Below, one piece after another: positions 2,402 through 59,902 of a stretch of 64,000 nucleotides of DNA. The DNA lies in NCBI GenBank assembly GCA_913063225.1, contig CAJXYP010000001.1, positions 57,308-121,307 of the forward strand. The letters are read 5' to 3'. The notes beneath the pieces are model-generated. The model worked only from the letters and a program-made list of their open reading frames with translations. It was not told the DNA's origin and made no database searches. The position numbers and the translations under genes are program-made. The DNA is from an uncultured Cellvibrionales bacterium (lineage in GTDB: Bacteria; Pseudomonadota; Gammaproteobacteria; Pseudomonadales; GM7GCV1). Every line of letters begins with the position of its first letter. Position 1 is the stretch's first letter.

Positions 2402-4279
2402 TTAAGCGGTTTTTTTCAGAGGTTGTTGCCGCTTAAGGTGGATCAATAACAGTGAAACCGCAGCTGGCGTAACACCGGGCACACGAGAAGCCTGGCCGAT
2501 AGTTTCTGGTTTTACATCGCCCAACTTCTGCTGAACTTCATTAGATAAACCGGACACACCGCTGTAATTAAACGTCGCTGGAATTTTGTGATGTTCTTGG
2601 TTTTTAACTTTAGCCACTTCGTCCGTTTGGCGATCAATATAACCAGCGTACTTAGCGGATATTTCTAATTGCTGGCCAGCGGCTTCTTCCACCGGTTCAG
2701 ATTCTGAAACGGCACAGATTTTTTTATAGTCCAGTTCGGGTCTTTTTAGTAGATCAAAAAGAGAGTATTCCCGACTTATAGGTCGCTCAATCAAATCATT
2801 TAGCCGCCCAGCCGTGGCGGTTCCGGGTTGAACCCAGGTATCTTTAAAACGCTGAGTTTCTTTGACTACCGCTTCGTTTTTATCTTGAAAGTTCTTCCAG
2901 CGGGCATCATCTACCAAACCTAGCTCGCGGCCTTTTGCCGTTAGTCGCTGATCAGCGTTATCTTCGCGCAACATCAACCGATGCTCGGCTCTGCTAGTGA
3001 ACATTCGATAAGGTTCTTTGGTTCCCAAAGTCACCAAGTCATCAACCATCACACCCAGATAGGCCTGGTCTCGCCCGGGACACCAGGAGTCTTGCTCGCG
3101 GCCAAGTAATACGGCGTTTATACCTGCCAACATACCTTGGGCGGCGGCCTCTTCGTACCCTGTAGTGCCGTTAATTTGTCCGGCAAAAAACAATCCCGGA
3201 ACATGTTTGTTTTCCAGCGAATTTTTCAGGTCTCGTGGATCAAAGAAGTCGTATTCGATAGCGTAGCCAGGACGGGTAATGTGCGCACTCTCAAATCCGG
3301 AAATACTGCGCACAAGATCCTGCTGCACATCAAAGGGCAAACTGGTGGATATGCCGTTTGGATATAACTCTTTTGTTTGAAGCCCTTCTGGCTCAACAAA
3401 TATCTGATGAGAGCTCTTGTCGGCAAAGCGAACAATTTTGTCTTCAATCGATGGGCAGTACCGCGGGCCAATGCCTTCAATTACGCCGGTAAACATAGGT
3501 GAACGATCTAGACCGCCGCGAATAATCTCATGGGTTTTTTCAGATGTGTGGGTAATCCAGCAGCAAGCTTGCTGAGGATGTTGATCTACCGAACCAAGAA
3601 AGCTCATTACGGGTTCTGGTTTGTCTCCCCACTGTTCTTCCATCACGGAAAAGTCGACGCTGCGCGCGTCAATGCGGGGAGGAGTACCGGTTTTTAATCG
3701 ATCTACTCGAAGCGGCATTTCGCGCAAACGATCAGCCAATCTAATTGAGGGTGGATCGCCTGCTCTGCCGGCCAAATGGTTTTCTAGGCCGATATGCACT
3801 TTGCCGCCGAGGAATGTACCGGTGGTTAATACAACCGCTGGTGCGCTGAAGGTCAGGCCCATGTTGGTAACTACACCGGTTACCCGGCCAGATTCAATCG
3901 CCAAGTCATCAACTGCTTGCTGAAAAATATGCAGGTTTGGTTGGTTTTCTAGGATTCCGCGAATGGCTTGTCGATATAAAACCCGGTCGGCCTGAGCGCG
4001 AGTTGCTCTAACCGCTGGGCCTTTTCGAGAGTTTAGCAACCGAAATTGGATGCCGGCCTGGTCTGTGGCTAAGCCCATTGCGCCGCCAAGAGCATCTACT
4101 TCTCGGACGAGGTGGCTCTTGCCAATACCGCCAATAGCGGGGTTGCAGGACATTTGGCCAAGTGTTTCGACGTTGTGAGTTAGCAGGAGTGTGCTGGCGC
4201 CCATGCGCGCAGCCGCTAACGCCGCTTCGGTGCCTGCGTGTCCTCCTCCAACAACGATAACGTCGTAATTCAAATCCAT
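2402..4279 (-). CDS. mnmG: tRNA uridine 5-carboxymethylaminomethyl modification enzyme MnmG (GidA)
   Basis: 625-aa ORF with the N-terminal FAD motif [14 protein letters not shown] and typical GidA length. Confidence 0.96.
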
Positions 4280-46865: not shown

Positions 46866-49658
46866 ATGTCCGACGCCCCGCTTATTCTCGTTGACGGCTC
46901 ATCCTATTTGTACCGAGCCTTCCATGCATTGCCCCCGTTAACCACCTCAAAGGGAAAGCCTACCGGTGCGGTTCGTGGTGTGGTGGCCATGCTGAAAAAA
47001 GAACAAAAGAAATATCCCGATAGCACTATCGTGGTGGTATTTGATGCCAAGGGTAAAACCTTCCGCGACGAACTCTACGGCGAATATAAATCACATCGGC
47101 CACCAATGCCGGATGACTTGCGAGAGCAAATCGAACCCTTGCACGCCTGTGTGCAGGCTATGGGTTTCCCTATGCTGGTTCATCCGGGAGTAGAGGCAGA
47201 TGACGTTATTGGTACCTTGGCCTGTGAAGCTTCCAGTCGGGGTAAGCCGGTGCTTATATCCACGGGCGACAAGGATATGGCTCAGTTAGTTGACGATAAT
47301 GTCGGCCTAATCAATACCATGTCAGGCAGCCAATATGATGCCGCCGGTGTTGAAGAAAAATTCGGGGTGCCGCCCAAACTGATTATCGATTACCTCGCTC
47401 TTATTGGTGATAAAAGTGACAACATTCCGGGTGTGCCTGGGGTAGGTGAAAAAAGTGCAACGCCTATTCTGCAAGCCTTAGGCGGGTTAGACGATATCTA
47501 CGCCAACCTTGATGCTATTGCCGGGTTGGAATTTCGTGGCGCCAAAAAGATGGCCGAGAAGCTGGTCGAACATAAAGAATCTGCCTACCTTTCTTACACC
47601 TTGGCGACCATTAAGCTAGATGTCGATCTCGACATCGATCCTGCAGACCTAAAGAATAGTGAGCCAGATACCGCAGCACTGCGACAGCTCTATGCCGACC
47701 TTGAATTTAAAGGCTGGGTTACTGAGTTGCCTGTGCCAAGCAATGAATTTAGCTTGTCTCAGGGCAATGCCTCAGTGTCCGGTGCCGCTGCTGCGGACCC
47801 GGCGGGCGATGTTGCTCAAACTCCAATTGTGCCTTCTCTCCCTGCCATAGAGGTTGAATACGAAACGATACTTAGTGAAAGCAGTCTCGATGCTTGGGTT
47901 GCAAAATTAAAAACGGCCGAAGTCTTTGCCTTTGATACCGAGACTACGAGCCTTAACTATATGAAGGCTCGCGTAGTCGGTTTGTCCTTTGCGATTGAGC
48001 CCTATAAAGCGGCTTATGTGCCTCTGGAACATGATTATCCTGGTGCGCCGAATCAGTTAGGCGCCGAACTCGTATTTAGGAAGCTTGAACCTATTTTGAT
48101 GGACGCCAACAAAACCTTAGTGGGTCAAAACATTAAGTACGATATTAGCGTTCTGGCTCAGGCTGGAATCGAGATTGCCTGCACACTGCAGGACACTATG
48201 CTCGAATCCTATGTGCTGAATTCTGTAGCCGGACGTCACGATATGAACTCATTAGCCTTGCGTAATCTGGATCGCGAGACCATCCAGTTTGAGGATATCG
48301 CCGGCAAGGGTGCCAAGCAGATCACTTTCAATCAGATAGAGTTGGAGCAAGCTGGGCCTTACGCTGCGGAAGATGCTGATGTGACCATACAGTTGCATCA
48401 AACCCTGCATCCCCAATTGAGCGAACATCCCTCTTTGCTAAAGGTCTACAATGAAATAGAAGCTCCGTTAATTCCGGTTCTGTCGCGTATTGAACGCACC
48501 GGTGCTTATATCGACAGTAAAGCTATGCAGAAGCAGAGCGGCGAAATTGCCATTCGTCTTATTGAGCTAGAAGCAGAAGTTCATGAGCTAGCTGGGCAGC
48601 CGTTTAACTTGGCTTCACCCAAACAGCTGCAGCATATCCTCTACGAAAAAATGCAGTTACCGGTTCTGAAAAAGACCCCTAAAGGGCAACCCAGTACAGC
48701 GGAAGACGTACTACAAGACCTCGCATCAGAGCATGAATTACCCGCGCTTATTGTTCAGTACCGTGGTTTAGCCAAGTTGAAGTCTACCTATACCGATAAG
48801 CTGCCTCTAATGGTGGATGAAAAAACGGGAAGGCTACACACCTCATACCACCAAGCGGTTGCCGCAACGGGTCGGCTGTCTTCCACCGAACCCAATTTGC
48901 AAAATATTCCGATTCGAACCGAAGAAGGTCGGCGAATCCGTAAGGCATTTATCGCGGAACAGGGCAGCAAAATATTGGCGGCGGATTATTCTCAGATCGA
49001 ACTGCGCATCATGGCGCATCTATCTAAAGACGCCGTGTTGCAAAAAGCCTTTGCCGACAATCTTGATGTTCATTCCGCTACGGCGGCCGAAGTCTTTAGC
49101 GTCGAACTGGATCAGGTGACTACAGACCAGCGGCGCAGTGCCAAGGCGATCAACTTCGGGTTGATGTACGGTATGAGTGCATTTGGTCTCGCCAAGCAAT
49201 TGCATATAGGCCGTAAAGAAGCACAGCAATATATGGATCTCTATTTTGAACGATACCCCGGCGTAGCCACTTTTATGGAGCAGATTCGAGAAGACGCCCG
49301 CGACAAAGGTTTTGTCGAAACGCTATACGGCCGACGGCTTTATCTGCCCCAAATAAACGCGCGCAACGGGCAGCATCGCGCCGCCGCAGAGCGCACCGCT
49401 ATTAATGCCCCGATGCAGGGTACCGCTGCGGATATTATTAAACGAGCTATGTTATCGGTTGATGCATGGCTATTGGAGGAAGAACCTCCGGTTAAAATGA
49501 TTATGCAGGTGCACGATGAACTCGTGTTTGAGGTGCAAGAAAATTATTTGCAGACCGCGAGCAAAAAAATAATTCAACTAATGGAATCTGCTGCCGAACT
49601 GTCAGTGCCCTTAGTTGTAGAGGCTGGAAGCGGGGAAAACTGGGAAGAGGCGCATTAA
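46866..49658 (+). CDS. polA: DNA polymerase I
   Basis: 930-aa ORF with a 5'-nuclease N-terminus, 3'-5' exonuclease FDTETTSL, and polymerase motifs DYSQIELR and QVHDELVFE. Confidence 0.97.
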
Positions 49659-49720
49659 TTTAATATTTTTTAATTATCTGTGAACTATTCGCAGCTATGG
49701 ATGACTAATAGTATGTAAAA

Positions 49721-49787
49721 GTTCCCCCCTCCTTGTGTTTTACCTAGCAAGTTTGCTAAACCCCGTTTGTCCGACGGGGTTTTTTTT
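49721..49787 (+). ncRNA. sRNA-like unit A (possibly polA 3'UTR-derived): C-rich seed, small hairpin and intrinsic terminator
   Basis: The seed is GTTCCCCCCTCCTTGTGTTTTACC (49721-49744). A hairpin spans 49746-49757. The terminator stem is CCCCGT/ACGGGG (49761-49779) followed by T8 (49780-49787). The 5' end is unknown. Confidence 0.4.
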
Positions 49788-49814
49788 GAACTTTTTTAAT
49801 CGATACCGTTCTTA
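49788..49814 (+). promoter_or_regulatory. Sigma-E/AlgU-like promoter candidate (GAACTT-N16-TCTTA) in front of sRNA unit B
   Basis: GAACTT lies at 49788-49793 and TCTTA at 49810-49814, spaced 16 nt apart. Compare the ECF sigma-E/AlgU consensus GAACTT-N16/17-TCTGA. Confidence 0.3.
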
Positions 49815-49820
49815 TTAATA

Positions 49821-49917
49821 GATGGTTTGAGTTCTCCCCTTTTCTTGAACTGTTTTAACCCCCTGCGGTATATACATAAGTAACCGCCTTTATAAGCCCG
49901 CATAGCGGGCTTTTTTT
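49821..49917 (+). ncRNA. sRNA-like unit B: C/U-rich seed, internal hairpin, AU linker and intrinsic terminator (Spot 42/ErsA genomic position)
   Basis: The seed GTTCTCCCCTTTTCTTGAACTGTTTTAACC (49831-49860) is related to that of unit A. A hairpin pairs GCGGT with ACCGC (49865-49887). The terminator stem is GCCCGC/GCGGGC (49896-49910) followed by T7 (49911-49917). A second terminator 130 nt after the first implies an independent short transcript. Confidence 0.45.
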
Positions 49918-50041
49918 AGTCGATGAAATCGGCTTGCTATTTTGTCGTAGTCGTTGAAACCCTGCTCAATCAGTCGCGTACCTATGTAAGCTAACTCTTT
50001 GCGTGCGCTTTCGCGTTGGGTCTCAGGTAGCTACTTGTTCT

Positions 50042-50734
50042 TTAGTCTTGCGGGAGATTAGCCGGCGGGGCTAGGTCCAACCAGGAATTGAGTTGTGCCT
50101 TTAGTTCGTCTAGACCGGTTTTCTTTGTAGCCGAGAATAGCTGCGATGTAAGGCCGTCGGCTAGATTCATTTTTTTAAGTTCAGACAGGATGTGTAGCCG
50201 GTTACTGGATGCAGGGCCGCGCTTTAGTTTGTCGGCCTTGGTAAGTACCAGGTGAACTGGTTTTTCGCTGGCGCTTGCCCAATCGATTAGATTTAGATCA
50301 TAGGGCTGCAGGGGCAGTCTTACGTCTGCAAGAAGTACTAGCCCCCTTAAACTGGTGCGTTCTTCGAGGTATTGGGTGAGATGTTCCTGCCATTCGAGCT
50401 TAACTCTTTCCGAAACCTTGGCGTAGCCGTAACCCGGAAGATCGACGAGCCGACGATATTCGTCCAATTCAAAGAAGTTGAGAAGCTGAGTCCGGCCCGG
50501 AGTTTTACTAGTCCGTGCTAATTTTCCGTTGCGAGTCAGAGCATTTATAGCACTGGATTTACCCGCGTTTGATCTACCGATAAAGGCAACTTCTGCGCCT
50601 TCATCTGGGGGACACTGGGCTAACCCAGGTGCGCTGAGCATAAATGCAGCCCGGTCGAAAGACGGCATTGGTGGTATTGGCTTGTCGAAAGAGTTCAATG
50701 CTTCGCTCAGTTGAAGGGGGTTGGAATCGGGCAA
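50042..50734 (-). CDS. engB: Ribosome biogenesis GTP-binding protein EngB (YihA/YsxC)
   Basis: It has G1 motif [22 protein letters not shown] and TKADK. The track start (TTG 50734) may be too long, and ATG 50668 gives an E. coli-like length. Confidence 0.9.
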
Positions 50735-50932: not shown

Positions 50933-51577
50933 ATGAAATTAAGTCTATATAGCCTATTTATTCTTGCCATAATGGCAGCAGCACCCCTTTGGGCGCAAAC
51001 CGGAGATGCCGAAGCCGGACAAGGCAAAGTTGCACTCTGTGCTGCTTGCCACGGGTCTGATGGAAAAGGTATTTTGCCTCTCTATCCAAACATCGGTGGG
51101 CAAGGCGAAGCCTATCTTTATAAGCAGATCTCGGAAATTAAAGCCGGTATTCGTGTTGTGCCTGAGATGGCTCCCTTCACCGCTGCCCTGAGTGATCAGG
51201 ATATGATGGATATTGCCGCATATTATTCCACGCAGCCAAGGCAGCTTGAGGGATCGCAACCATTAGAAAGTGTTCCCTTCGCGCTTAATTCAGAAGATTT
51301 TCTGGTTCTGGGCGAACTGGTTTTCCGCTCCGGTAATCTTGAAAATGGTGTTCCAGCATGTACTGGCTGCCATTCTCCTTCGGGAAAGGGTAACTTCCCC
51401 GCGGGCTACCCTGCGCTAAGTGGCCAAAAAACTGCTTACCTTGTTAAACAACTTACCGATTTCCAGAACAACATACGGACAAATGATGGCGAAACGCGAA
51501 TTATGCGTGGTGTTGTGGCGCGTATGACTGCGCTGGAAATTGAGGCCGTGGCCAACTTTATCTCCGGTCTTAACTAA
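50933..51577 (+). CDS. Diheme cytochrome c4
   Basis: 214-aa ORF with a signal peptide and two heme-binding motifs, CAACHGSDG and CTGCHSPSG. Confidence 0.92.
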   Translation: MKLSLYSLFILAIMAAAPLWAQTGDAEAGQGKVALCAACHGSDGKGILPLYPNIGGQGEAYLYKQISEIKAGIRVVPEMAPFTAALSDQDMMDIAAYYSTQPRQLEGSQPLESVPFALNSEDFLVLGELVFRSGNLENGVPACTGCHSPSGKGNFPAGYPALSGQKTAYLVKQLTDFQNNIRTNDGETRIMRGVVARMTALEIEAVANFISGLN

Positions 51578-51689: not shown

Positions 51690-52343
51690 ATGTCTAAGCT
51701 GTTGAAACTAACAATATTAGCTTTGCTAATACCCGCGGCCTTGAGTAATGCACAAACCACTGCTAGCAGTTTTGCATTTCAGGATGGCATTGATTTTCAA
51801 ACTTTAGCTCGACCTGTTGCGACAGAAGATCCTAGCAAAATCGAATTGGTTGAGGTTTTTTGGTACGGCTGCATTCATTGCTTCAGATTGGAACCAATGC
51901 TGAAAGAGTTCGCGGCAGCGCTGCCGGAAGATGTTAGTTTAGTGAAAGTTCCAGCAATGTGGCACGAGACTATGGAGCTTCACGCAAAGGTCTATTTTGC
52001 TTCGCAAGCCTTGGGCATTACCGACGAGATTCATGACGGTGTATTCTCCGCGATGAATGAGCAGCGCAATACGCTGGCCAATGAACAAGCTATCTTTAGC
52101 CTGGTAGAAGACCTTGGTCAGGACCAAGCAAGATTTGAGCGCGCTTTTAGTTCCTTTGGTGTTACCAGTCAGGTCACTCAGGCCAAGTCTAAAACCGCTG
52201 CTTATGGAATTCGCGGAACGCCAGAGCTTATTGTTAATGGTAAGTACAGAATATCTACCACCATGACGGGTACGCAGCAGCAAATGTTGGTTGTTGCCGA
52301 AGCGCTTATCAATCGTGAAAGGGCAATGCTGCAAGGGCAGTAG
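51690..52343 (+). CDS. dsbA: Thiol:disulfide interchange protein DsbA (soluble periplasmic paralog)
   Basis: 217-aa ORF with a Sec signal peptide (…AALSNAQ) and an active site FWYGCIHCF (CxxC). Confidence 0.88.
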   Translation: MSKLLKLTILALLIPAALSNAQTTASSFAFQDGIDFQTLARPVATEDPSKIELVEVFWYGCIHCFRLEPMLKEFAAALPEDVSLVKVPAMWHETMELHAKVYFASQALGITDEIHDGVFSAMNEQRNTLANEQAIFSLVEDLGQDQARFERAFSSFGVTSQVTQAKSKTAAYGIRGTPELIVNGKYRISTTMTGTQQQMLVVAEALINRERAMLQGQ

Positions 52344-52365: not shown

Positions 52366-53031
52366 ATGTCTTATAGAAAGTCGATTACCAAGAAGATTTC
52401 GCTATTTGCAATGATGCTGGTTTTGGCAGCTTGCAGCGCGCAGGATGATCAAGCGGCTGGCGGCGATCAATTTACCGATGGCGTAGATTATCAAACTCTC
52501 GCACGTCCAGTGGCAACTGAAGATCCCAGCAAAATCGAACTTGCGGAAGTGTTTTGGTATGGATGTATCCACTGTTATAGATTTGAACCGCTCTTAGAAG
52601 AATTTGCTGCCGATCTTCCTGAGGATGTGACTCTGGTGAAGATTCCGGTTGCATGGAATGCCACAGCAGAGCTGCACGCTAAAATCTATTTTGCAGCTGA
52701 GGCTTTGGGAATCACTGAAGATATTCATATGGATGTTTTCAGGGCGTTAAATGATCAACGAAAAGTGTTGGCCAGTGAATCCTCGGTTTTGAATTTTATT
52801 GAGGACCTCGGCCACAATCGAACGAGCTTTCAAAGAGCGTTTAATTCATTTGGCGTAAGTACCCAGGTCACGCTGGCAAAGTCTAAAACTACAGCCTACG
52901 GAGTTCGCGGAACACCGGAACTGATTGTAAACGGCAAATATAGAGTTTCCAGCTCTCTGACAGGCACCACTGACCAGATGCTGGTCGTGGCCGCCGCTCT
53001 AATCGAGCGCGAGCGAGCGGCTGCACAGTAA
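52366..53031 (+). CDS. DsbA-family thiol:disulfide oxidoreductase, lipoprotein paralog
   Basis: 221-aa ORF with a lipobox (MMLVLAAC) and active site FWYGCIHCY. By eye it is about 70% identical to the upstream paralog. Confidence 0.85.
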   Translation: MSYRKSITKKISLFAMMLVLAACSAQDDQAAGGDQFTDGVDYQTLARPVATEDPSKIELAEVFWYGCIHCYRFEPLLEEFAADLPEDVTLVKIPVAWNATAELHAKIYFAAEALGITEDIHMDVFRALNDQRKVLASESSVLNFIEDLGHNRTSFQRAFNSFGVSTQVTLAKSKTTAYGVRGTPELIVNGKYRVSSSLTGTTDQMLVVAAALIERERAAAQ

Positions 53032-56750: not shown

Positions 56751-59240
56751 ATGAAAAAGTCGAACATCACCATCGGGAAGCGTGATTGGTTTCTAGCCTT
56801 AGCAGTGTCAGGTCTGTTTCTGGCGCTTTCCCAATCTGCTGTTCTGCAGAGCATAGAACGGTTTGCCTACGATAGGGGTCTTAGAGGATCCTCTGCCGAA
56901 CCTAGCGATCGTATCGCCGTGATCGCCATCGATAATGAAAGCCTGAAAAATATCGGGCGCTGGCCCTGGTCGCGAGACGTGCACGCGAGCATGATTGATT
57001 TGCATCTCTAATGCTGGAGCCAAGGTGATTGGCCATACTTCCTTTTTCTTTGAGCCTCAGGATGATCCCGGTCTCGATATTGTAGAGAGCATCGGATTTT
57101 TCTTAGAAGATTTTGGATTGGCGGCCACTGATTTTGATGCAGATGGTTTTCCGGTTTCTATCCCGGGGTATGGTTTTGATGACCTGCGGTTAACGCTCGA
57201 AGCATCTAGCGCTGATTTAGATCCACTGGCGGCGGAAGACCTGTCGTTTGCTATAGAGGCTTTGGAATTCCCCCTAACGGAACTTCATCAACAGGTGTTT
57301 ACTGTTGTTGAAGCTTTGGATCTGGATCAGATACTTGCCAATAGCATTGCAGATGTTTTTCTATATTGGCCAACCCTTGGGCAATCCAGACACCCTTATG
57401 CCCGGCTTTATATCAGATAGTAGTGCGCTGTTTAATATTCAGGAAAATATACAGGCCGCGCAAAGCGGGCTGTTTCCCTTGCAGTCGGTTTTTGTCGAAA
57501 CGCCTATTGATGTTCTTGGTTCTTGGGCTTCTGGTGTCGGACATTTAAACGCGCTTCCGGATGTTGATGGTGGCATTCGATCCGAGCCATTGGTGCTTGA
57601 TTGATTTGGTGAGCCCTATCCCTCCCTATCTTTATTATTGGCGGCAAAAAGTTTGAATCTGTCCGTTGATGACATCGGTGTAAAACTCGGTGAGGGCTTT
57701 GATTTGGGGGCTTTAAGCATTGGCACGGACGATACCCTGCAAATGGACACCTTTTTCTACACTGACCAAGATGGCGTGCCTGTCTTTCAGGTTGATTCAT
57801 TTTACGATGTTATTTCCGGCAGCATTCCGGCCAGTAAATATAGCGATAAAATTGTGCTTATAGGTGCAACTGCGGTTGGTTTGGGCACTACTCAGGTAAC
57901 ACCGGTCGACCCGGCTATGACTCCGGTGGTCGCCCTTGCGCACTCGGTATCAAGTATTCTCAATGAGCATTTCTTTATAACTCCCATCTGGGGAGCCTAT
58001 GCCAGCCTTGGAGTGTTTTTACTGGTGGCGCTGTAATTACCGTCGGGTTGTTTCTCGTACTTGTAGTCACTCACTATGTACTTATGACCCAGCAGTCTAT
58101 GTGGGTGCAGTTAATGGTGCCTGCGGTACTGCTGGTGGTTGGCTATATGTTGCTAACAACCAAAAGATTTTTGGTTGCCGAAGCGGGCAAGCGCATGTCT
58201 GATATGGAGTCCTCGGAGAGCAATCGGATGCTAGGTCTCGCCTTTCAGGGGCAAGGCCAGCTGGTGCCGCGTATCAATATATCTTTGACTTCGCTCCCGG
58301 ATTCAAAGATGTGGAAGAGCGCATACAGCGCAGTAAAAAATTGGAAGAAACTATTATTCTGGGCGGTAGCGGCGGACACGCCTGGATGCGGCAGAGAAAC
58401 CTATGTTGGGCCGCTCTCAAGTTCAGAAAGAACTCGGTAAGGGTGCAATGGGTATTGTCTATTTAGGGTCAGATCCAAAAATTAACCGCACGGTGGCGAT
58501 TAAGACCATGGCGCTTTCTCAGGAATTTGAAGGCGACGAGATGGATGATGTTAAAGAGCGGTTCTTTCGCGAGGCAGAAAACGCTGATCGGCTAAATCAC
58601 CCACATATCGTTACCATTTATGACGCTGGCGAAGAGTATGATCTAGCTTATATCGCTATGGCGTTCCTCAAGGGCGCTGATTTGGCTCCTGCGACGAAAA
58701 AAGAGGCTTTGCTGCTATTTGGACAAAGTCATAGAAATCACGCTTAAACGCGCTTCTGCACTCAACTACGCCCATGCGCAAAATGTTGTGCATCGGGATA
58801 TCAAACCCGCCAATGTTATGTGCGACCCCGAATCCAATGAAATGAAAATCACAGATTTTGGTATCGCTCGTATTACCGATTCCAGCAAGGCTAAAACTGG
58901 TATGGTTTTGGGCACACCAAGATATATGTCCCCGGAACAGTTAGCCGGCAAGAAAGTAGATGGAAGGTCAGATCTATTTTCGTTAGCCGTAATGCTGTAT
59001 CAGCTGTTGACGGGCAAATTGCCATTTCAGGCGGAGTCCATGGCAACACTGATGTATAAAATTACCAATGAACCACATCCGAGAATTCGTGAAGCAAATG
59101 CCAACGTGCCTATTGAATTTGAGGACTATTTTGAAAAAGCCTTAGAAAAAGATCCTGACGAGCGATTCCAAGATGGTACTGAGATGTCGCAGGCCCTCAA
59201 AGATACCATCCGAAAAATTAAACAGCGGCAGAAAGGCTAG
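56751..59240 (+). pseudogene. CHASE2-sensor Ser/Thr protein kinase, heavily fragmented (about 6 frameshifts, 1 in-frame TGA, probable internal deletion)
   Basis: Seven consecutive track ORFs in changing frames tile one protein. The CHASE2 part reads AVIAIDNESLKNIGRWPWSRDVHASMID / AGAKVIGHTSFFFEP / GHLNALPDVDGGIRSEPL / YPSLSLLLAAKSL. TM helices follow, then SESNRMLGLAFQGQGQL. The Hanks kinase part reads GKGAMGIVYLG, AIKTM, HRDIKPANVM, DFG and GTPRYMSPE. An in-frame TGA lies at 57602-57604. Confidence 0.85.
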
Positions 59241-59253
59241 GTTGAGGTAGGGT

Positions 59254-59902
59254 TTGCTAATGGATATAAGAGATAGCATCGAAATAGTTTGCAGTACTGA
59301 TACTGGCCAGAAGCGAGACCATAACGAAGATGCGGTGGGCTCAGAAGCTAGCCTTGGACTTGTGGTGCTGGCTGATGGAATGGGCTGCTATCAGGCCGGC
59401 GAAGTTGCCAGTGCAATGGCCGTGGATATTGTACTGGAAGATATCCGGGCAAAACACGAGGAGGCTGTCGCTGGGGAAGACGAAGACCTAGATAAAACCG
59501 TTGTGATAAAGCCCTATGCCGTTGGTATGGACGGTACGGCAGCCTTTGAGGCTGCAATTCTCGAGAAAGAGAAAGAGAAAGAGAAAGAGAAAGAGAAAGA
59601 GAAAAAGCAAAAGCAAAAGCAAAAGGACGATGCCGTCACTGCTGAATTAGTTGCCAGCGGAGAAAAGCCCGCATTACTGCAGCTTTTAAATGGGCCAAAT
59701 AATGGCGCTTAATAAATCAATTACTCGCTTGGGTAAGCCGGGCGAGCAGGTTGCTGCCATTGCCAAACGCCCTCAGGGATATTTCATCATGCATTTGGGC
59801 GGCAGTACCGCCCAGCCTATTCTGAACGGCAGTAATGTCGGCACACAGGCTACGTCGCTTAAGCACGGTGATATTATTGAAGTGGGCAAGGGGTCCGTAT
59901 GA
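59254..59902 (+). pseudogene. PP2C-phosphatase N-terminal remnant joined to a low-complexity linker and an FHA-like C-terminus (frameshifted)
   Basis: Only PP2C motifs I-II are present (STDTGQKRDHNEDA; LADGMGCYQAGEVAS), and the rest of the roughly 240-aa fold is missing. An (EK)7(KQ)3 linker follows. A +1 shift near 59700 leads into LNKSITRLGKPGEQVAAIAKRPQGYFIMHLGG...GDIIEVG, which looks like an FHA domain. Confidence 0.6.
59563..59624 (+). repeat. Hexanucleotide microsatellite (GAGAAA)7 followed by (GCAAAA)3
   Basis: Seven perfect GAGAAA units span 59563-59604 and three GCAAAA units span 59607-59624. In frame they encode EKEKEKEKEKEKEK-KQKQKQ. Confidence 0.95.

Follow-up and report, generated by a model that had tools for sequence, protein, structure and literature searches.

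Small RNAs (sRNAs) encoded beside engB, the gene of a GTPase also known as YihA, have been filed separately under three names. The first, Spot 42 (the product of spf), is repressed by CRP and carries seeds that are U-rich rather than C-rich. Its gene occupies the spacer between polA and engB, on the polA strand (bioRxiv 10.64898/2026.07.10.737749). The second, ErsA of Pseudomonas aeruginosa, adjoins PA5492/engB (PMC3349714); it depends on sigma-22/AlgU and is assisted by Hfq, with algC and oprD as repressed targets and amrZ activated by way of an unstructured, U-rich region (PMC8395346, PMC5819304), a single-stranded CUCCU-plus-U-rich stretch being its mapped interaction region (PMC5819304). 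ErsA corresponds to Rfam family RF01719, Pseudomon-1 (gathering score 50 bits), and to P. aeruginosa SPA0122, formerly 'Spot42-like'. The third, anti-hemB (Rfam RF02837, gathering score 49.5 bits), was described as an orphan RNA (PMC1950547), is expressed and bound to Hfq in B. cenocepacia as ncS04 (PMC5688073), and is discussed in a 2026 preprint as a hemB-related antisense element (10.64898/2026.09.01.748597); these publications treat it as an orphan or hemB-antisense RNA and leave sigma-E unmentioned. Here we describe the polA-engB spacer of a 64-kilobase (kb) stretch of contig CAJXYP010000001.1 (assembly GCA_913063225.1), referred to over its full length of 64,000 nucleotides (nt) as the window, and propose that it carries two tandem sRNA genes of the ErsA kind.

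The spacer is flanked by polA (DNA polymerase I; 46866-49658, + strand), recognised by Pfam DNA_pol_A together with 5'-3' and 3'-5' exonuclease domains, and by engB/yihA (50042-50734, - strand), recognised by Pfam MMR_HSR1 and with homologues named YihA/YsxC. The two genes are convergent and leave a gap of 383 nt (49659-50041) in which a first-pass annotation, made from the sequence alone, had placed two + strand terminators; a terminator scan confirmed this layout, and the 900-nt region scanned holds five terminator-like sites against 1.3 expected. We put at roughly 0.62 the probability that the spacer contains two sRNA genes in tandem on the polA strand, each with a promoter of the RpoE/AlgU type and its own terminator, which would encode envelope-stress sRNAs of the ErsA kind. 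These are a predicted sRNA-1 of ~73 nt (49715-49787, + strand; fold z-score -2.8) and a predicted sRNA-2 of ~97 nt (49821-49917, + strand; fold z-score about -3.8 to -4.0). Their putative starts, ~49715 and ~49821, were derived from the rule of a 5-6 nt discriminator and coincide with the onset of conserved blocks.

The closest named proteins to the EngB of the window (from Microbulbifer, Porticoccus and Halieaceae) are ~60-64% identical to it, and an identical EngB was found in marine metagenomes as well as on a 2.33-megabase (Mb) contig; the window therefore belongs to an uncultured marine gammaproteobacterium near Cellvibrionales. Spacers of relatives were obtained by 12 exact-protein look-ups, three of which (loci L107, L111 and L113) ended inside or before the spacer. 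Eight lineages were thus compared, namely the window itself (= L019), L118, L100-102, L103-105, L108, L109, L110 and L112, with EngB proteins 68-100% identical. A scan of genome contigs with EngB gave only relatives 51-62% identical, and a scan of metagenome contigs with EngB peptides gave 80 distant loci (42-62% identical), which were reused for a survey of engB neighbourhoods. Both units were present in the same order and orientation in all eight lineages, within spacers of 242-548 nt, and what is conserved is the two units as discrete blocks, the remaining spacer being variable or absent. Covariance models of unit 1 (R1) and unit 2 (R2) were built from the relatives with L118 held out. R1 scored 60-96 bits over all relatives (69 bits for the held-out lineage) and R2 scored 73-91 bits (88 bits), and neither model detected a further copy of a unit within the window.

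The sigma-E promoter consensus of Escherichia coli comprises GGAACTT, a strongly preferred spacing of 16 nt, TCAAA, a discriminator of 5-6 nt and an A/T-rich upstream region (PMC1312014). Each unit is preceded by a candidate promoter of this geometry, assigned to the sigma-E/ECF02 type (ECF, extracytoplasmic function) by motif match and conservation. The first-pass annotation had recognised the one ahead of unit 2, P2 (49788-49814, + strand), in which the -35 element GAACTT (49788-49793) sits directly against the T8 tail of the first terminator and is followed by 16 nt and the -10 element TCTTA (49810-49814); it had missed P1 ahead of unit 1 (49682-49708, + strand), with GAACTA (49682-49687), 16 nt and ACTAA (49704-49708). 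For both units in all eight lineages, GAAC(T/C)(T/A) is followed after exactly 16 nt by a five-base element, which is (A)C(T/C/A)AA in unit 1 and TC(T/C/A)(T/A)A in unit 2. Column identity across the lineages is 0.92 for the -35 element, 0.88 for the -10 element and 0.58 for the 16-nt spacer in unit 1, and 0.96, 0.82 and 0.59, respectively, in unit 2. The unit 2 promoter of L112, GGAACTT-N16-TCAAA, is identical to the E. coli consensus. Conserved hexamers held at a fixed spacing around a drifting spacer are the footprint expected of a two-block promoter.

Predicted sRNA-1 carries at its 5' end an unpaired block, UCCCUCCUUGU, that includes CCUCCU, the anti-Shine-Dalgarno (anti-SD) sequence of the 16S ribosomal RNA (rRNA) 3' end. 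Its putative C/U-rich seed, UUCCCCCCUCCUUGUG (49722-49737, + strand), is near-invariant in the eight lineages, with a conserved core UCC(C)UCCUUGU that again contains CCUCCU and whose C-rich part has an unpaired probability of ~0.9 in every lineage. The poly-C run noted in the first-pass annotation is specific to the window; what the lineages share is this core. Downstream lies UAGCAAGUUUGCUA (49745-49758, + strand), a small hairpin or conserved box, the sequence of which is conserved with no covariation; folding also allows it to pair over a long range with the 5' end of the RNA instead. The unit closes with a terminator found by the scan (49758-49787, + strand; stem-loop 49758-49782, T8 at 49780-49787), in which three pairs show compensatory changes, 89% of cells are paired and covariation exceeds both shuffle and slide controls.

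Predicted sRNA-2 starts with a stem-loop, SL1 (49821-49854, + strand), formed of an 11-base-pair stem and the loop UUCUCCCCUUUU (49832-49843) in independent minimum free energy (MFE) folds. MAFFT misaligned SL1 and the unit 1 terminator, and RNAalifold caught partial structure; SL1 was judged by separate folds and flank shuffles. Independent MFE folds gave the same design in all eight lineages, with stem sequences that differ and a U/C-rich loop that is always of the UUCCCCUUUU type. When flanks were shuffled 1000 times, the native design was equalled in 0/1000 cases for the window group, 3/1000 for L112 and 42-43/1000 for L103 and L108, and native flanks were no better than shuffled ones in L109 and L110. 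A second C-rich block, the linker AACCCCCU (49857-49864, + strand), is predicted to be unpaired; it is kept as ACCCC(U/C)U in five of the eight lineages and weakened in L100, L118 and L109. A further stem-loop, SL2 (GCGG...CCGC; 49865-49887, + strand), has four pairs that are invariant in nine sequences, which is evidence neither for nor against pairing. The terminator found by the scan (49894-49917, + strand; stem-loop 49894-49912, T7 at 49911-49917) has five pairs changed on both sides and 98.6% of helix cells paired. Over unit 2 as a whole, 99% of structure cells are paired and 0/500 shuffles reach the covariation score, and the spacer alignment for covariation that had been suggested in the first-pass annotation thus gave support above controls for both terminator stems. 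The units thus combine a conserved, accessible seed with a Rho-independent terminator whose U-tail has six residues or more, one of the features by which the class of sigma-E-dependent, trans-acting Hfq sRNAs is defined.

RybB, MicA, MicL and VrrA, members of this class from enterobacteria and vibrios, combine a sigma-E promoter, a short RNA with a seed at the 5' end or in a loop, and a U-tailed terminator, and they repress abundant envelope messenger RNAs (mRNAs). By analogy, the logic that we infer for the window units is the same; unlike these sRNAs, the units show no sequence or structure match to them and lie at another locus, and the seeds of the four are not C-rich. On release of the envelope-stress sigma factor, both RNAs would be transcribed, the T8 tail of terminator 1 perhaps doubling as the A/T-rich upstream (UP) region of P2, and some sRNA-1-like RNA could come from polA read-through. 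Both would act in trans, probably with Hfq, and their exposed C/U-rich segments (UCCCUCCUUGU, located 5' in sRNA-1, plus the UUCCCCUUUU hairpin loop and ACCCCCU linker of sRNA-2) would pair with G-rich Shine-Dalgarno (SD) regions and block translation. Envelope or outer-membrane protein mRNAs would be the likely targets, as in other sigma-E sRNA circuits.

Several observations weigh against this proposal. A degenerate sigma-E motif occurs three times in 64 kb against 1.4 expected, with two of the three on the + strand of the 383-nt spacer; the whole-window count is by itself not significant, and the promoter argument therefore rests on position and conservation. The -10 element of P1 has A in place of T as its first base; in L118 (3143-3619, - strand; same 90% EngB cluster) it reads AATAA, with the key C lost and the RNA intact. 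No rpoE or hfq was found in the annotated part of the window. Neither the small hairpin of sRNA-1 nor SL2 of sRNA-2 shows any variation, and the pairing of both is a prediction. A scan of duplex energies over both strands of the window with the C-rich seeds, in line with the target prediction that the first-pass annotation had recommended, returned no target better than shuffled seeds: the best non-self site (-30.0 kcal/mol) lies inside an open reading frame (ORF), and shuffled seeds reach -31.8 kcal/mol. A seed of the CCUCC type would moreover pair with nearly any strong SD sequence, leaving specificity unexplained. Finally, terminator 1 must also end polA transcripts, being the sole terminator that the scan makes available to this gene, so that part of the sRNA-1 signal could derive from the 3' untranslated region (3'UTR) of polA.

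The last point leads to an explanation without independent genes, in which the spacer holds 3'-end structures only: terminator 1 would end polA, terminator 2 would insulate polA from engB or serve engB as a bidirectional terminator, and the conserved blocks would be elements of the polA 3'UTR or RNAs processed from it. The singularity of terminator 1 downstream of polA fits this, as do the imperfect P1 -10 element with its mutation in L118 and the position of terminator 2, which abuts the engB stop codon in L103 and L108. Terminator 2, however, has no ORF ahead of it, and the engB strand lacks a U-tract there in every lineage. Promoter-like hexamers that keep their exact spacing while the intervening spacer drifts, and non-terminator blocks that are more conserved than the covarying terminator stems, also speak for separate transcripts, as does unit 1 of L100-102, which is intact despite ~160 extra nt between it and the polA stop. 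We consider it unlikely, on balance, that 3'-end structures account for the spacer.

Two further explanations accept the RNAs and assign them another mode of action. Instead of pairing with specific mRNAs, the exposed C-rich loops might bind a protein or the ribosome and titrate it, for example by mimicking the anti-SD sequence or serving as sponges. The identity of CCUCCU with the 16S rRNA 3' end, the threefold occurrence of the motif across the two RNAs and the lack of a specific target in the 64-kb window would all be in keeping with titration. Against it, the RNAs contain no GGA repeats of the CsrA/RsmA type, and for ErsA, the characterised RNA of this locus, Hfq-assisted base-pairing with mRNAs is documented (PMC8395346, PMC5819304); we regard titration as very unlikely. 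Alternatively, the RNAs could act in cis on the convergent engB gene, by transcriptional interference or as antisense to its 3' end, since unit 2 is directed towards engB and in some relatives ends at its stop codon. Both units nevertheless terminate before engB in all lineages, at distances from 0 to ~220 nt, the conserved parts are the seed-like C-rich segments and not the engB-proximal end, and ErsA, which occupies this position in Pseudomonas, is a trans-acting RNA (PMC8395346); a role in cis is scarcely more than a slim prospect. As regards coding capacity, a small protein might be encoded, for instance by a 35-codon - strand ORF that is present in the ORF list (49796-49903). This ORF is interrupted by single-nucleotide indels in comparison with relatives whose EngB is 92% identical, open frames vary in frame and length between lineages, and ATG frames on the + strand comprise 2-3 codons; with its frame broken among relatives, a small protein at 49796-49903 was excluded.

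The favoured reading, two sRNA genes of the ErsA kind, was next set against the known families of the locus. Nothing in the whole window was reported by Rfam at gathering thresholds, and the Spot_42 and Pseudomon-1/ErsA models, which the first-pass annotation had proposed for this check, gave no match in 49600-50100 even at E<=10. At the latter setting, sub-threshold matches in the spacer were to anti-hemB, RsaE, PsrR1, GP20-a (wrong strand), PyrR and a Trp leader; these are dominated by terminators and C-rich motifs and were rejected as indications of family membership. The same models do find their families beside engB in the distant loci. Pseudomon-1/ErsA was matched, with 67-143 bits, in L012 (3659-3791), L029 (2732-2847), L031 (2617-2724) and L038 (2778-2893); anti-hemB, with 54-80 bits, in L053 (2622-2714), L066 (715-805), L077 (2608-2706), L083 (2613-2703), L087 (2600-2689), L088 (2446-2533) and L097 (1643-1734); and Spot_42, with 125 bits, in L052 (1066-1184). 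All of these matches are on the - strand of loci oriented with engB on +, and all have the position and strand of the window units, which bears out the ErsA/Spot 42 position that had been attributed to them.

Each of the four ErsA matches has GAACNN-N16/17-TCAGA 27-28 nt upstream of the model start, and six of the seven anti-hemB matches have GGAACT(A/T)-N16/17-TC(T/A)TA 19-24 nt upstream, with a small 5' hairpin between; the genuine Spot 42 locus, L052, has no sigma-E motif. Across 87 distant engB loci, the region up to 500 nt downstream of engB contains 23 such motifs (in 20 loci) antisense to engB vs 1 in the sense orientation, and the antisense rate is 0.53/kb vs a background of 0.036/kb. 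This bears on the idea that the window units are diverged Spot 42 RNAs, i.e. regulators of sugar metabolism under sigma-70/CRP control as in Enterobacterales and Vibrionales, with which they share the polA-engB spacer and the polA strand. R1 does match genuine Spot 42 (L052) at 16.5 bits (E 0.13), with 5' GUA.GA.GUUCU...UUUUAC aligned, a match too weak to interpret. Unlike the Spot 42 locus, both units carry a sigma-E motif; no sigma-70-like promoter was found on the + strand of the 900-nt region scanned and no conserved CRP-type palindrome was noticed in the spacer, by inspection only; and the window spacer yields no match to the Spot_42 model, for which 80 bits or more would be required. A Spot 42 origin under CRP control is accordingly a very improbable account of the units.

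Likeness to ErsA is closer. As in ErsA, the window units adjoin engB on the opposite strand and the polA side, both are preceded by what appears to be a sigma-E/AlgU-type promoter of the same geometry, and they have exposed C-rich motifs, a CUCCU/U-rich stretch (unit 1) and Rho-independent terminators. They differ in that ErsA is encoded by one gene of ~132 nt and has a 5' hairpin, two G+C-rich hairpins with C-rich loops, and an GUGUUGGCAGA box, whereas the window has two genes of ~73 and ~97 nt, with their own promoters and terminators and none of the ErsA boxes. The full ErsA architecture (5' hairpin, CUCCU/U-rich strand, GUGUUGGCAGA box, CCCC-loop hairpin and CCCUCCCC-loop terminator) was not found in the window units; its counterparts are just the CUCCU/U-rich stretch of unit 1 and the C-rich hairpin loop of unit 2, split over two genes. 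The RF01719 model, which works on L012, L029, L031 and L038, likewise gives no match at all at the window spacer, where 50 bits would be required. At the sequence level, unit 1 and the divergent ErsA of L031 share UCCUCCUU(UG)GUGUUU, with a shuffle p of ~0.003-0.004 that is borderline after 12 comparisons; similarity did not exceed shuffles for unit 1 against the other three ErsA sequences or for unit 2 against all four. The L031 variant also has CUCCUCCUUUGGUGUUU, resembling the unit 1 seed. The Rfam ErsA model leaves out a conserved 5' hairpin (GAAUGGCUGG..AAGCCCUUC).

The best-scoring Rfam family on unit 1 is anti-hemB, with 21.1 bits (E 0.013) in the window and 33.6 bits (E 4e-4) in L110, the best relative, both short of the 49.5-bit threshold. 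The units resemble the anti-hemB of Betaproteobacteria-like loci in their engB-adjacent position, antisense strand and terminator end, and the CUCCUCCCUGAGC motif of anti-hemB is similar to UCCCUCC...CCUGAGC, found in unit 1 of relatives. The placement of the C-rich motif differs: anti-hemB presents it in the loop of a G+C-rich hairpin, with a second hairpin after it, and unit 1 at a free 5' end. By position, and probably by evolution too, the window locus corresponds to ErsA in Pseudomonas and to anti-hemB in Betaproteobacteria, here in a shortened, AT-shifted form with two units. Functional likeness of the units to the known RNAs is much better supported than their descent from them: address, strand, apparent promoter class, exposed C-rich motifs and kind of terminator are the same. 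The units are recognised by no existing family model and look like a duplicated, strongly diverged variant of a known RNA locus, that of ErsA.

Tandem sibling sRNAs are known from PrrF1/PrrF2 of P. aeruginosa and OmrA/OmrB of E. coli, which are arranged head to tail with a promoter and a terminator each. The two window units have the same arrangement; unlike these siblings, which can be aligned over most of their length, they share just a 5' C/U-rich stretch and their general design. R1 picks up unit 2 with 16-22 bits and R2 picks up unit 1 with 16-20 bits, both in the window and in a number of relatives, the similarity residing mainly in the first ~23 nt (GU..AGUU.UCCC..UU) and in the terminator. 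The relatedness of the units claimed by the first-pass annotation was hence reproducible in cross-model scores of 16-22 bits and is weakly supported: the units may stem from an old duplication, and a shared design could produce the same likeness. Two tandem units are also seen in the polA-engB spacers of L001 (~3730-4090, - strand) and L114-L117 (3128-3555, - strand), with EngB 61-63% identical, where every unit comes with a terminator, C-rich motifs and a motif of the sigma-E type. Neither R1 nor R2 detects these units, and homology to the window pair is unsupported by the models. Sub-threshold Rfam matches of the L001 units are to Spot_42 (28.7 bits) and Pseudomon-1 (27.2 bits).

An engB-adjacent RNA with a sigma-E motif and several CCCCC loops occurs in the Alcanivorax-like loci L014/L015 (~3590-3760, - strand) and in L008, where polA is not the neighbour and cation-antiporter-like ORFs lie upstream in its place. 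Because the RNA is kept there, the engB-adjacent RNA appears to be linked to engB rather than to polA. It is a tentative suggestion, and somewhat less than an even chance in our estimate, that all sigma-E-promoted RNAs beside engB descend from one ancient, sigma-E-controlled sRNA gene that predates the split of Beta- and Gammaproteobacteria and has kept its place beside engB. Its descendants would now be filed as anti-hemB, as Pseudomon-1/ErsA or not at all, and in several Cellvibrionales-like lineages (the window clade, L001 and L114-117) duplication or splitting would have given two RNAs, each with its own promoter, between which the C-rich seeds are divided.

Other features of the window and its relatives were noted in passing. 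Downstream of terminator 2, the sequence up to the engB stop (49918-50041) varies among relatives and is missing from L103 and L108; in the window it contains a short hairpin, AGTCGATGAAATCGGCT (49918-49934), flagged as terminator-like by the scan, and a similar hairpin occurs at this place in L118. In L100-L102 (3092-3639, - strand), the ~160 extra nt separate the stop codon of polA from the promoter of unit 1, and an ORF of 62 codons that overlaps the polA end is called there. Beyond engB, a cytochrome c4-like gene (50933-51577) is followed by two tandem genes of the DsbA family (51690-52343 and 52366-53031), and this cytochrome c/dsbA/dsbA/argS neighbourhood is retained in relatives. On the + strand at 56995-59712, short consecutive ORFs contain a CHASE2 domain fragment, the C-terminal two thirds of a Ser/Thr protein kinase domain and a PP2C phosphatase fragment; they look like one or two genes with frameshifts, or assembly errors.

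The sigma-E/AlgU-dependent sRNAs are the repressor arm of the response to envelope stress, and the handful described come nearly all from cultured pathogens. If the reading proposed here is correct, an uncultured marine lineage that is abundant and has a small genome keeps this arm at the chromosomal address used by Pseudomonas, in the form of two short RNAs that current models do not see, and R1 and R2 may be used to annotate such RNAs in marine metagenomes and metatranscriptomes. The comparison of engB loci also provides a testable link among the three separately filed RNAs of this locus and suggests that anti-hemB is an envelope-stress sRNA; were the common origin true, the orphan anti-hemB would acquire the envelope-stress sigma factor as its regulator, together with a likely function.

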